Below are positions 57,655 to 60,044 of a stretch of DNA of 64,000 bases, piece after piece (position 1 is the stretch's first letter; every line of letters starts with the position of its first letter). The position numbers and the translations under genes are program-made. This DNA is from Cladosporium halotolerans. Taxonomy: Eukaryota. Where the stretch lies: contig NW_027191452.1 in assembly GCF_011745625.1 (NCBI RefSeq), forward strand, positions 620,001 through 684,000. The letters run 5' to 3'. The notes under the pieces were generated by a model, which had not been told where the DNA came from, did not search any database, and worked only from the letters and a program-made list of their open reading frames with translations.

Positions 57655-59384
57655 TTAGTGCTGGCTCCACTCAATCGTGTTGAGGTCCACACCCTCTTGA
57701 ACAAGCTCCCACAGCGGGCTCAGCTCGCGCAGGAACGTCACGCGCTCCCTCACGGCGTTGAGCACATAGTCGATCTCGGCGTCGGTGGTGAAGCGACCAA
57801 TTCCGAAGCGAATACTGGAGTGGGCGCTCTCGTCACTGCTGCCAAGCGCACGAAGCACGTAGGATGGTTCGAGCGATGCCGAAGTGCAAGCAGAACCGGA
57901 AGAGAGGGCGATGTCTTTCAGAGCCATGAGGAGGGATTCGCCCTCAACATAGGCAAATGAGACGTTGACGCAGCCTGGGTAGTGCATGGCGGGATCTCCG
58001 TTCAGGGAAGTGTGCTCCATGGCGAGAAGACCTTCAGTAAGGCGCTTAGAAAGCTGGGAAATGCGCTTGGTGTCGTACTGCAAGCGATGTCAGCGGTTGT
58101 TCAAATGATGCTTTGAAAACAAACGGTGTAGGTGCGCAAGATAGGAGGGTCATAACAGTTACGTGAGCTGTATCAGCAAACAAATCACCTGTCACAGTGC
58201 GACTCAGAAAGCCATGCATGTTGAAGCGTATAATCATTCGGGAAGGCGTGATGAGGGAAAAGGAGATGGCGACTTACATCCATCTCTTCCTGGCAAATCC
58301 GGGCAGCCTCACCGAAGCCGATGACAAGTGGCGGTGCGATGGTGCCTGATCTCAGACCTCTCTCTTGACCACCGCCAGAGATAATCGGGTCGATCCTGAC
58401 CCTGGGACGTCTTCGGACAAAGCAAGCACCAATACCCATGGGTCCGTAGATCTTGTGTCCAGAGATGGACATGAGGTCGACGTTCATCTTGTTCACATCC
58501 AGGGGGACTTTGCCGACAGCTTGGGCTCCATCGGTGTGGAAGAAAACCTTCTTGCTTCGGCACATCTTACCAATCTCCTCCAGAGGCTGGAGGACACCGA
58601 TTTCGTTGTTGACGGCCATGATGGAGACAAGGCAGGTCTCGGGTCTGATGGCCTTCTCCAAGTCTTCCATGTTGATCAGTCCGTTCTTCTGAACAGGGAG
58701 GTAAGTGACCTCGAAGCCTTCGTCCTGCAAATGCCTGCAGCTGTCCAGAACGCACTTGTGTTCAGTCTGGCAGGTAATGATGTGGTTCTTCTTGCCGGAC
58801 CTCTTAAAGAATCGTGCAACGCCCTTGATGCTCATGTTGTTGCTCTCGGTCGCACCCGATGTGAAAATGATCTCTTTAGGGTCTGCACCAATCAGCTTGG
58901 CAACGTTTGCGCGAGCTTGCTCTACGGCATTGTCGGTCTCCCAGCCGTACGCATGTGTCCGCGAATGTGGGTTGCCGTAGAGCCCGGTCAGGAAAGGTAG
59001 CATTGCATCAAGTACTCGGGGGTCCGTTGGTGTTGTGGCTTGCATGTCCATGTAGATTGGCCTTGTGCCCTCGTCCATTACAGTTGCTTGCTTCAAGATA
59101 CCGGCAGCAGGACTCATCATGGCGTCGGCATTCATGCCTGTAGTAGGCATTTCTGCATCTTTAGGCTTCGTGCCGGTCTCTGACAGGAAGGCCTTTTGGT
59201 CCTGCTTAATGGTCTGTTCGATTGTGGCGTTTTTGGGAGCCGACTCAGAGACGTATGTTCGTCGGCTTTTCGCGGCGATGCATGCTCGTGGCACCTGCTT
59301 CGCAAACGGATGCGAGGCTGTCGACAGCCTTCGCGAACACTGGCGAAGCGCCTGGCGCGCAACTGTGGGTGCAGTGCTAGACAT
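57655..59384 (-). CDS. NFS1: Mitochondrial cysteine desulfurase Nfs1; intron 58078-58277
   Basis: Arg/Ser-rich presequence, [37 protein letters not shown] (PLP Lys) and SSGSACTS (catalytic Cys). Confidence 0.97.
58170..58241 (-). ncRNA. Intronic box C/D snoRNA, predicted 18S rRNA 2'-O-methylation guide
   Basis: C box ATGATTA (58237-58231), D' CTGA (58207-58204), D CTGA (58176-58173). The 13-nt ACATGCATGGCTT upstream of D' is the perfect complement of conserved 18S AAGCCAUGCAUGU. It is in sense orientation within the longest intron I annotated. Confidence 0.78.
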
Positions 59385-59962: not shown

Positions 59963-60044
59963 GCATTGGTGGTTTAGTGGTAAAATTGGCCGTTGCCATC
60001 TGAGCATAGTCGGCCAGCCCCGGGTTCGATTCCCGGCCGATGCA
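59963..60044 (+). tRNA. tRNA-Gly(GCC) with 11-nt intron (59999-60009)
   Basis: Acceptor GCATTGG/CCGATGC-A, A box TGGTTTAGTGG, anticodon stem GGCCG/CGGCC around TT-GCC-A, and T-arm CCGGG-TTCGATT-CCCGG. Confidence 0.93.

Follow-up and report, generated by a model that had tools for sequence, protein, structure and literature searches.

We consider it highly probable that the NFS1 gene of Cladosporium halotolerans carries, within its intron, a small nucleolar RNA (snoRNA) of the box C/D class and about 92-96 nt long, an orthologue of Nc CD4 of Neurospora crassa, which is freed by splicing and guides 2'-O-methylation of C49 in 18S rRNA. The family to which this RNA is added was first described in 2009. 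What is added here to the published picture is a corrected anatomy of the RNA, the assignment of the Aspergillus fumigatus transcript Afu-203 to the same family, and a candidate guide for U6 C62 in relatives. The case for Cladosporium was built on the sequence, its complementarity to rRNA, the splicing of the intron and its conservation.

All coordinates refer to the window, the 64,000-nt stretch of contig NW_027191452.1 (positions 620,001 to 684,000, assembly GCF_011745625.1) that was analysed. The features of the locus, all on the minus strand, are as follows.

58278..59384 (-): NFS1 coding exon 1, 369 codons
58078..58277 (-): NFS1 host intron, 200 nt; 5' site GTAAGT, branch CTGAC near 58093, 3' CAG
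58147..58242 (-): predicted mature box C/D snoRNA, about 92-96 nt; 88 nt from C box to D box, the exact ends being predicted
58231..58237 (-): box C, variant AUGAUUA (U for G at position 6)
58222..58228 (-): GCU element between box C and guide; GCT in 30/36 cores among the matches listed
58209..58221 (-): D' antisense guide, 13 nt, complement of 18S 46-58, predicted target C49; identical in Nc CD4
58204..58207 (-): box D' CUGA; the search pattern fixed TGA, and the free C is present in 38/38 rows among the matches listed
58185..58203 (-): hairpin 1, with UGAC in its loop; stems of differing sequence fold in most orthologues
58166..58177 (-): hairpin 2 (GCUG...CAGC), which holds the CTGA first proposed as box D; recurs in most orthologues
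58150..58153 (-): AUGA variant of box D, whose A can pair with the U at box C position 6; 72 nt to the 3' splice site
57655..58077 (-): NFS1 coding exon 2, 140 codons and stop

The host intron and the 18S guide

The initial annotation had placed the snoRNA in a 200-nt intron of NFS1, and this was confirmed by the GT...AG signals, by exon translations of an IscS/NFS1-type cysteine desulfurase, and by contigs of public sequencing runs; the intron was the sole break seen in the reading frame. At the splice joint 58077/58278, contigs from three of four runs skip exactly 200 bases. One of the three is recorded as RNA and two are guessed to be RNA, while the fourth run probably derives from a DNA source. 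All run evidence at this intron consists of contigs, by which the ends of an RNA cannot be shown. A crude motif scan for introns (44 candidates, many of them false calls) gave 40-79 nt as the commonest length bins. The window also contains a tRNA gene at 59963-60044 (+), whose anticodon loop bears a short insert resembling an intron.

The motifs quoted in the initial annotation were all located on the minus strand: ATGATTA at 58237-58231, the guide at 58221-58209, CTGA at 58207-58204, GTGATTT at 58188-58182 and CTGA at 58176-58173. The guide forms 13 of 13 Watson-Crick pairs with positions 46-58 of the 18S rRNA of the same genome, and has both the length (10-21 nt) and the place, directly before a D or D' box, of the antisense element that defines membership of the class. 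It is the longest such match between the intron and the genome's own 4.8-kb rDNA locus. Counted upstream from D', the guide base at position five is paired to C49 of the own-genome 18S, and C49 is therefore the predicted target, just as had been proposed from the letters. This nucleotide belongs to helix 5, according to the layout of a published 18S figure (PMC12723226). When the intron was shuffled 20,000 times, 311 of the sequences matched the genome's own rRNA (about 6 kb) over 13 nt at any place, and 1 had such a match followed by N and CTGA. No other boxed copy of the guide was present in the genome, the seven matches to a 12-mer being the NFS1 locus, the rDNA and five sites without boxes.

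A second guide was sought in the Cladosporium copy before either candidate D box, and none was found against the own 18S, 5.8S, 25S, U2 and U6. A 10-nt perfect complement to 25S (near own position 2907), at 58170-58161 (-), was rejected as a guide, since 7 nt separate its end from box D and a match of this kind is close to what chance would give. Close relatives retain this 10-mer with one G-U pair.

To survey conservation, box C, the guide and D' were combined into one search pattern, and a scan of JGI metagenome contigs with it returned at least 118 loci. Among those listed, 50 carry NFS1 exons, 39 a bacterial coding motif that we take to be trpB, 8 lie outside NFS1 and look like snoRNAs, and 21 were left unclassified; the 39 bacterial and 21 unclassified loci were left out of all snoRNA counts. 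Because box C, the guide and a portion of D' were set in the pattern itself, the conservation of these parts among the hits is circular; the pattern is silent on the host and the 3' half, so the results for these are not. NFS1 introns that have lost the snoRNA are invisible to such a guide-based scan. The element was found on the same strand as the gene in all 50 NFS1-exon loci and, wherever both junctions were available (47/47), in the same intron at the same codon position, these host introns being GT...AG introns of 180-271 nt (among the matches listed). Within 40 of the listed introns, conservation is limited to the splice signals and the interval from C to D; in the nearest relatives listed this interval is almost unchanged and the flanks have diverged. 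The alignment of orthologous introns, suggested at the outset as a check, upholds the location and the C-to-D interval among the matches listed, but not the D box that had been proposed. Clade labels used below, such as Neurospora-like, denote sequence likeness and not taxonomy.

Anatomy of the RNA and its 3' end

The initial annotation had box D at CTGA 58176-58173 and a length of 72 nt. To place the box, 40 distinct whole introns from the matches listed were aligned with no D box preselected. In this sample the column of the proposed box reads CTGA in 9 introns, TTGA in 12 and something else in 19, the last group having no TGA there, whereas the letters at 58153-58150 are CTGA in 22 introns and ATGA in 16, the remaining two rows having such a box a few bases away. 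The conserved box is therefore AUGA at 58153-58150, and the earlier placement does not stand. In 38 of these 40 introns box D lies 62-80 nt from the 3' splice site (72 nt in Cladosporium); the CTGA first proposed is 95 nt from it. In addition, the fit of contigs that run X6 contains from related organisms is confined to 58147-58240. From the conserved downstream column, the distance to the splice site and the limits seen in run X6, the RNA is predicted to be about 92-96 nt long with AUGAUUA/AUGA boxes, ending some 23 nt beyond the 3' end originally given. An intron contig from one run spans 58075-58236 and ends at box C, with none upstream, which would fit a 5'-trimmed intermediate and is taken as a weak hint.

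Both terminal boxes are non-canonical, no terminal stem was found, and folding was no better than in shuffled sequences (z +1.04). The AUGAUUA/AUGA pair nevertheless keeps both GA dinucleotides, with U6-A1 and A7-U pairs, and is able to form a kink-turn, although both boxes are variant. Box C reads TGATTA in 26 and TGATGA in 14 of the 40 introns listed, the only two forms that the pattern permitted. Counted among the matches listed, with a partly hand-tuned rule for D, the sixth base of box C and the first of box D form the combination U-A in 17, G-C in 14, U-C in 9 and G-A in 0 of the 40. This association (Fisher's p 4e-5) derives from few independent events, because the G-C rows form one clade, and 9/40 rows are mismatched.

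The remaining elements allow more than one reading. The GCU element may extend the pairing on 18S 61-64, or may pair with AGC before box D. The latter pairing, 5' GCU with 3' AGC, beats shuffles; native pairs were no better than cross-species pairs (p 0.55), and the covariation looked for in this internal pairing was not found. An internal C' box that would partner D' has two degenerate candidates. One is the loop of hairpin 1, which could instead be an extra rRNA-pairing element; TGAC occurs within 16 nt of D' in 29/36 cores among the matches listed. The YUGAU of hairpin 2 is the second candidate. Divergent C'/D' motifs and short extra pairings are described as common in yeast snoRNAs in the accessible text of PMC3116282.

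Release from the intron, protein binding and methylation are steps that we infer. The RNA would be transcribed within the NFS1 pre-mRNA; splicing would set it free, and trimming would bring it to about 92-96 nt. A kink-turn formed by box C (AUGAUUA) with box D (AUGA, 58153-58150) would then bind Snu13, Nop58, Nop56 and fibrillarin, an assembly that is established for the box C/D family. The 13-nt guide would pair with positions 46-58 of pre-18S, and fibrillarin would 2'-O-methylate C49. The Cladosporium RNA would in this way act as a single-guide RNA.

Published relatives and competing explanations

Nc CD4 (EU780928) of Neurospora crassa is an intronic RNA of 81 nt, identified by cDNA cloning and northern blotting and listed with a 13/0 match at D' and the predicted target 18S-Cm49 (Liu 2009, PMC2780460, Table 1). 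The Cladosporium copy shares with it the identical 13-nt guide, the U spacer, the D' box CUGA, the predicted 18S-Cm49 and the intronic location; outside the guide, the GCU element, the GUGACA hairpin and the YUGAU...CAGC hairpin are alike by eye, and this likeness is bridged by aligned survey loci among the matches listed. The two differ in that Nc CD4 has canonical AUGAUGA/CUGA boxes, the Cladosporium RNA having AUGAUUA/AUGA and about 10-14 nt more. A precedent for the variant pair may be Nc CD55, an expressed orphan C/D RNA of N. crassa, unrelated in sequence to the Cladosporium copy, which starts with AUGAUUA and has AUGA near its 3' end, if these are read as boxes (PMC2780460, Additional file 1). 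Table 1 of Liu 2009 gives no homologue of Nc CD4 in S. cerevisiae, S. pombe, Arabidopsis or human. This agrees with the initial view of a filamentous-fungal guide, the C49 guide being conserved in filamentous ascomycetes, and the guess that a homologue might be catalogued in Neurospora or Aspergillus sets was right. Canzler 2018 (PMC5824354) confirmed 10/16 such N. crassa targets by conservation, CD4 being unnamed in its accessible text. The RNA had also been called unannotated, which holds for Rfam but not for the literature, where the family is published as Nc CD4: a search of Rfam 15 (gathering and E-value thresholds) gave no relevant match in the window, in 20 of the at least 118 loci or in one 106-nt core.

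Afu-203 (AM921950) was reported from A. fumigatus as an "entirely novel ncRNA", unclassified and unconserved (Jochl 2008, PMC2377427, Tables 2 and 4). It measures 111 nt as cDNA and 110 nt by northern blot, and it lies on the sense strand in intron 1 of Afu3g14240 (PMC2377427), a gene identified elsewhere as nfs1 (PMC6250123). Two qPCR primers for afu-203 are informative (PMC13015456): one holds the last 9 guide bases followed by U and CGGA, and the other has the motif GCAGGGGU one base before AUGA. Both primer motifs match long orthologues in the survey alignment, and the size of Afu-203 fits the 100-109 nt long forms among the matches listed. Its D' box is apparently CGGA, and it carries a U6-complementary element that has no counterpart in the Cladosporium copy. 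On host, size and the two primers, we judge Afu-203 to be an Nc CD4 orthologue. A stable RNA from orthologues is documented in the published work on N. crassa and, by this assignment, on A. fumigatus. A literature search that included PMC5824354, PMC3890542, PMC8476143 and PMC8216456 returned no paper linking this snoRNA to NFS1, Afu-203 to CD4, or CD4 to U6; the tables and supplements of Canzler 2018 and the supplements of Jochl 2008 lie outside this coverage and may hold some. For the Afu-203 assignment, and for the U6 C62 guide in relatives described below, no earlier printed version was found.

A special tie of the snoRNA to Fe-S metabolism and tRNA thiolation had also been suggested, and it found no support. 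An intronic location is the rule in N. crassa, where 45/55 C/D snoRNAs are intronic (Liu 2009, PMC2780460), and look-alikes occur in introns outside NFS1 (L072, L086 and L105), so NFS1 is a stable and long-kept host, not an obligatory one. The name of the host gene of Nc CD4 does not appear in the accessible text of PMC2780460, and its seven supplements gave 0 hits for NFS1 or cysteine desulfurase; look-alikes such as L005 suggest that Nc CD4 also sits in NFS1. Neurospora-like CD4 copies were seen at L072:379-457 (+) and L086:256-339 (-), in GT...AG introns with no NFS1 exon nearby and flanks that look non-coding (for L086, 300-base flanks only). At L105:264-340 (-) an intron of an eIF3k-family gene (Pfam PF10075) contains a C49 guide whose C, D', C' and D boxes are all canonical; this is either a host switch or an independent guide for C49. 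C49-guide candidates of a different design were found at L109:263-340 (-) and near position 301 of L096, from which C49 may be targeted beyond the NFS1-hosting fungi; L109 shows a short intron, a tiny exon and another TGATGA-bearing intron, and is snoRNA-cluster-like. L022, L038 and L074 show a unit of some 110 nt repeated in tandem, in which TGATGA and the C49 guide occur together with CTGA and, further on, a second CTGA.

Three other explanations were weighed against a 92-96 nt guide RNA. That the mature species is the shorter RNA of about 72 nt, ending at CTGA 58176-58173, has a very small probability. CUGA is the canonical D box, TGA stands in that column in 21/40 introns, and an automatic rule chose the homologous CTGA in 4 loci, both counts being among the matches listed. 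Against this, 38/40 of the same introns have C/A-TGA at the downstream column, CTGA 58176 mismatches box C at positions 6 and 7 and is enclosed in a conserved hairpin 95 nt from the 3' splice site, and the sequence of Nc CD4 listed in PMC2780460 stops at the downstream box. Only a little more weight, and still a small one, is given to an RNA that exists in the cell but whose main role is to chaperone the folding of the 18S 5' domain, C49 being methylated little or not at all. Its short conserved elements outside the guide could pair near the target, as described for yeast snoRNAs (PMC3116282), and no Cm49 mapping was found in the literature consulted, the C. thermophilum positions being marked by colour only in the accessible figure of PMC12723226. 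However, every NFS1 hit among the matches listed preserves CUGA and the spacing between guide and D', as site-specific methylation needs, and the count of 33 Nm sites in the 18S of C. thermophilum versus 18 in S. cerevisiae (PMC12723226) leaves room for such extra sites.

That the Cladosporium element yields no functional RNA, being a relic in decay or a match by chance, is scarcely credible. The non-canonical C and D boxes, the lost second guide and the missing Rfam hit would suit such a relic, but the same variant boxes occur in 17/40 introns on several branches (among the matches listed) and apparently in the expressed Afu-203, to judge from its published primers. The near-constant C-to-D interval between diverged flanks in the nearest relatives listed, and the lack of any other boxed guide copy among the seven genome matches, also argue against decay. 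The guide RNA of about 92-96 nt directed at C49 is accordingly retained as the preferred explanation.

A candidate U6 guide in relatives and its implications

In 13/36 distinct cores among the matches listed, the sequence directly before box D ends in GCAGGGGU-N, and cores of this kind are spread over several deep branches of the NFS1 tree. The sole perfect site of this 7-base core, among 5,663 bases of own-genome 18S, 5.8S, 25S, U2 and U6, is in the U6 internal stem-loop. The duplex consists of 7 Watson-Crick pairs and 1 G-U pair, with D+5 on C62 (human numbering from the ACAGAGA box); it was computed against the Cladosporium U6 and not the relatives' own, is short at 8 pairs, and shares three bases with hairpin 2. 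Human U6 C62 is 2'-O-methylated under the guidance of SNORD94 (U94), according to the accessible texts of PMC7960923 and PMC6894857, and the 13/36 orthologous cores among the matches listed resemble SNORD94 in putting U6 C62 at D+5. The D-side element of these relatives thus seems to be a candidate U6 C62 guide.

The Cladosporium copy, unlike SNORD94, has no U6 Cm62 guide, the best helix before its box D being 6 Watson-Crick pairs, to 18S. The U6-complementary element is also absent from the Neurospora-like copies among the matches listed. A separate U6-C62 guide was looked for in the Cladosporium genome with two patterns: one gave 10 matches, none with evident snoRNA context, and the other a single match, about the chance expectation and without a clear D box. 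This match (L143, G000:C35:294533-294565, -) has TGATGA, an element complementary to U6 59-67 and CAGA, 72 nt after GTATGT. The predicted U6 target of Nc CD54 (PMC2780460, Additional file 1; PMC5824354) falls, in the register used here, on human-numbered C60, two bases from C62, so filamentous fungi may have guides for both.

We lean, with real reservation, towards a history in which the NFS1-intron RNA was an old fungal U6 Cm62 guide, a functional counterpart of SNORD94, which gained the C49 guide at D' in filamentous ascomycetes and became a double guide for ribosome and spliceosome alike, and then lost the U6 guide at least two times, in the Neurospora-like clade and in Cladosporium's clade. 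Afu-203 would be the double-guide form, missed because of its covarying AUGAUUA/AUGA boxes. If this is true, U6 Cm62 would be found in Aspergillus-like fungi and would depend on nfs1 transcription, and it would be absent or otherwise guided in Neurospora and Cladosporium.

The Cladosporium copy is one more of the snoRNA of 2009, yet it has no Rfam entry, and consensus scans would miss or shorten it. With the Afu-203 assignment, a fungal RNA that had gone without explanation since 2008 would acquire a function. Iron sensing has been studied by shut-off of the nfs1 promoter (PMC6250123), which should eliminate the snoRNA too and is a small possible confounder. For the spliceosome, a candidate fungal guide is now named for U6 C62, a nucleotide of the catalytic stem-loop which contributes, in human cells, to the licensing of m2G72, as described in the accessible text of PMC13109388. 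The family would, in addition, exemplify a guide that acquires and loses targets without leaving its intron.
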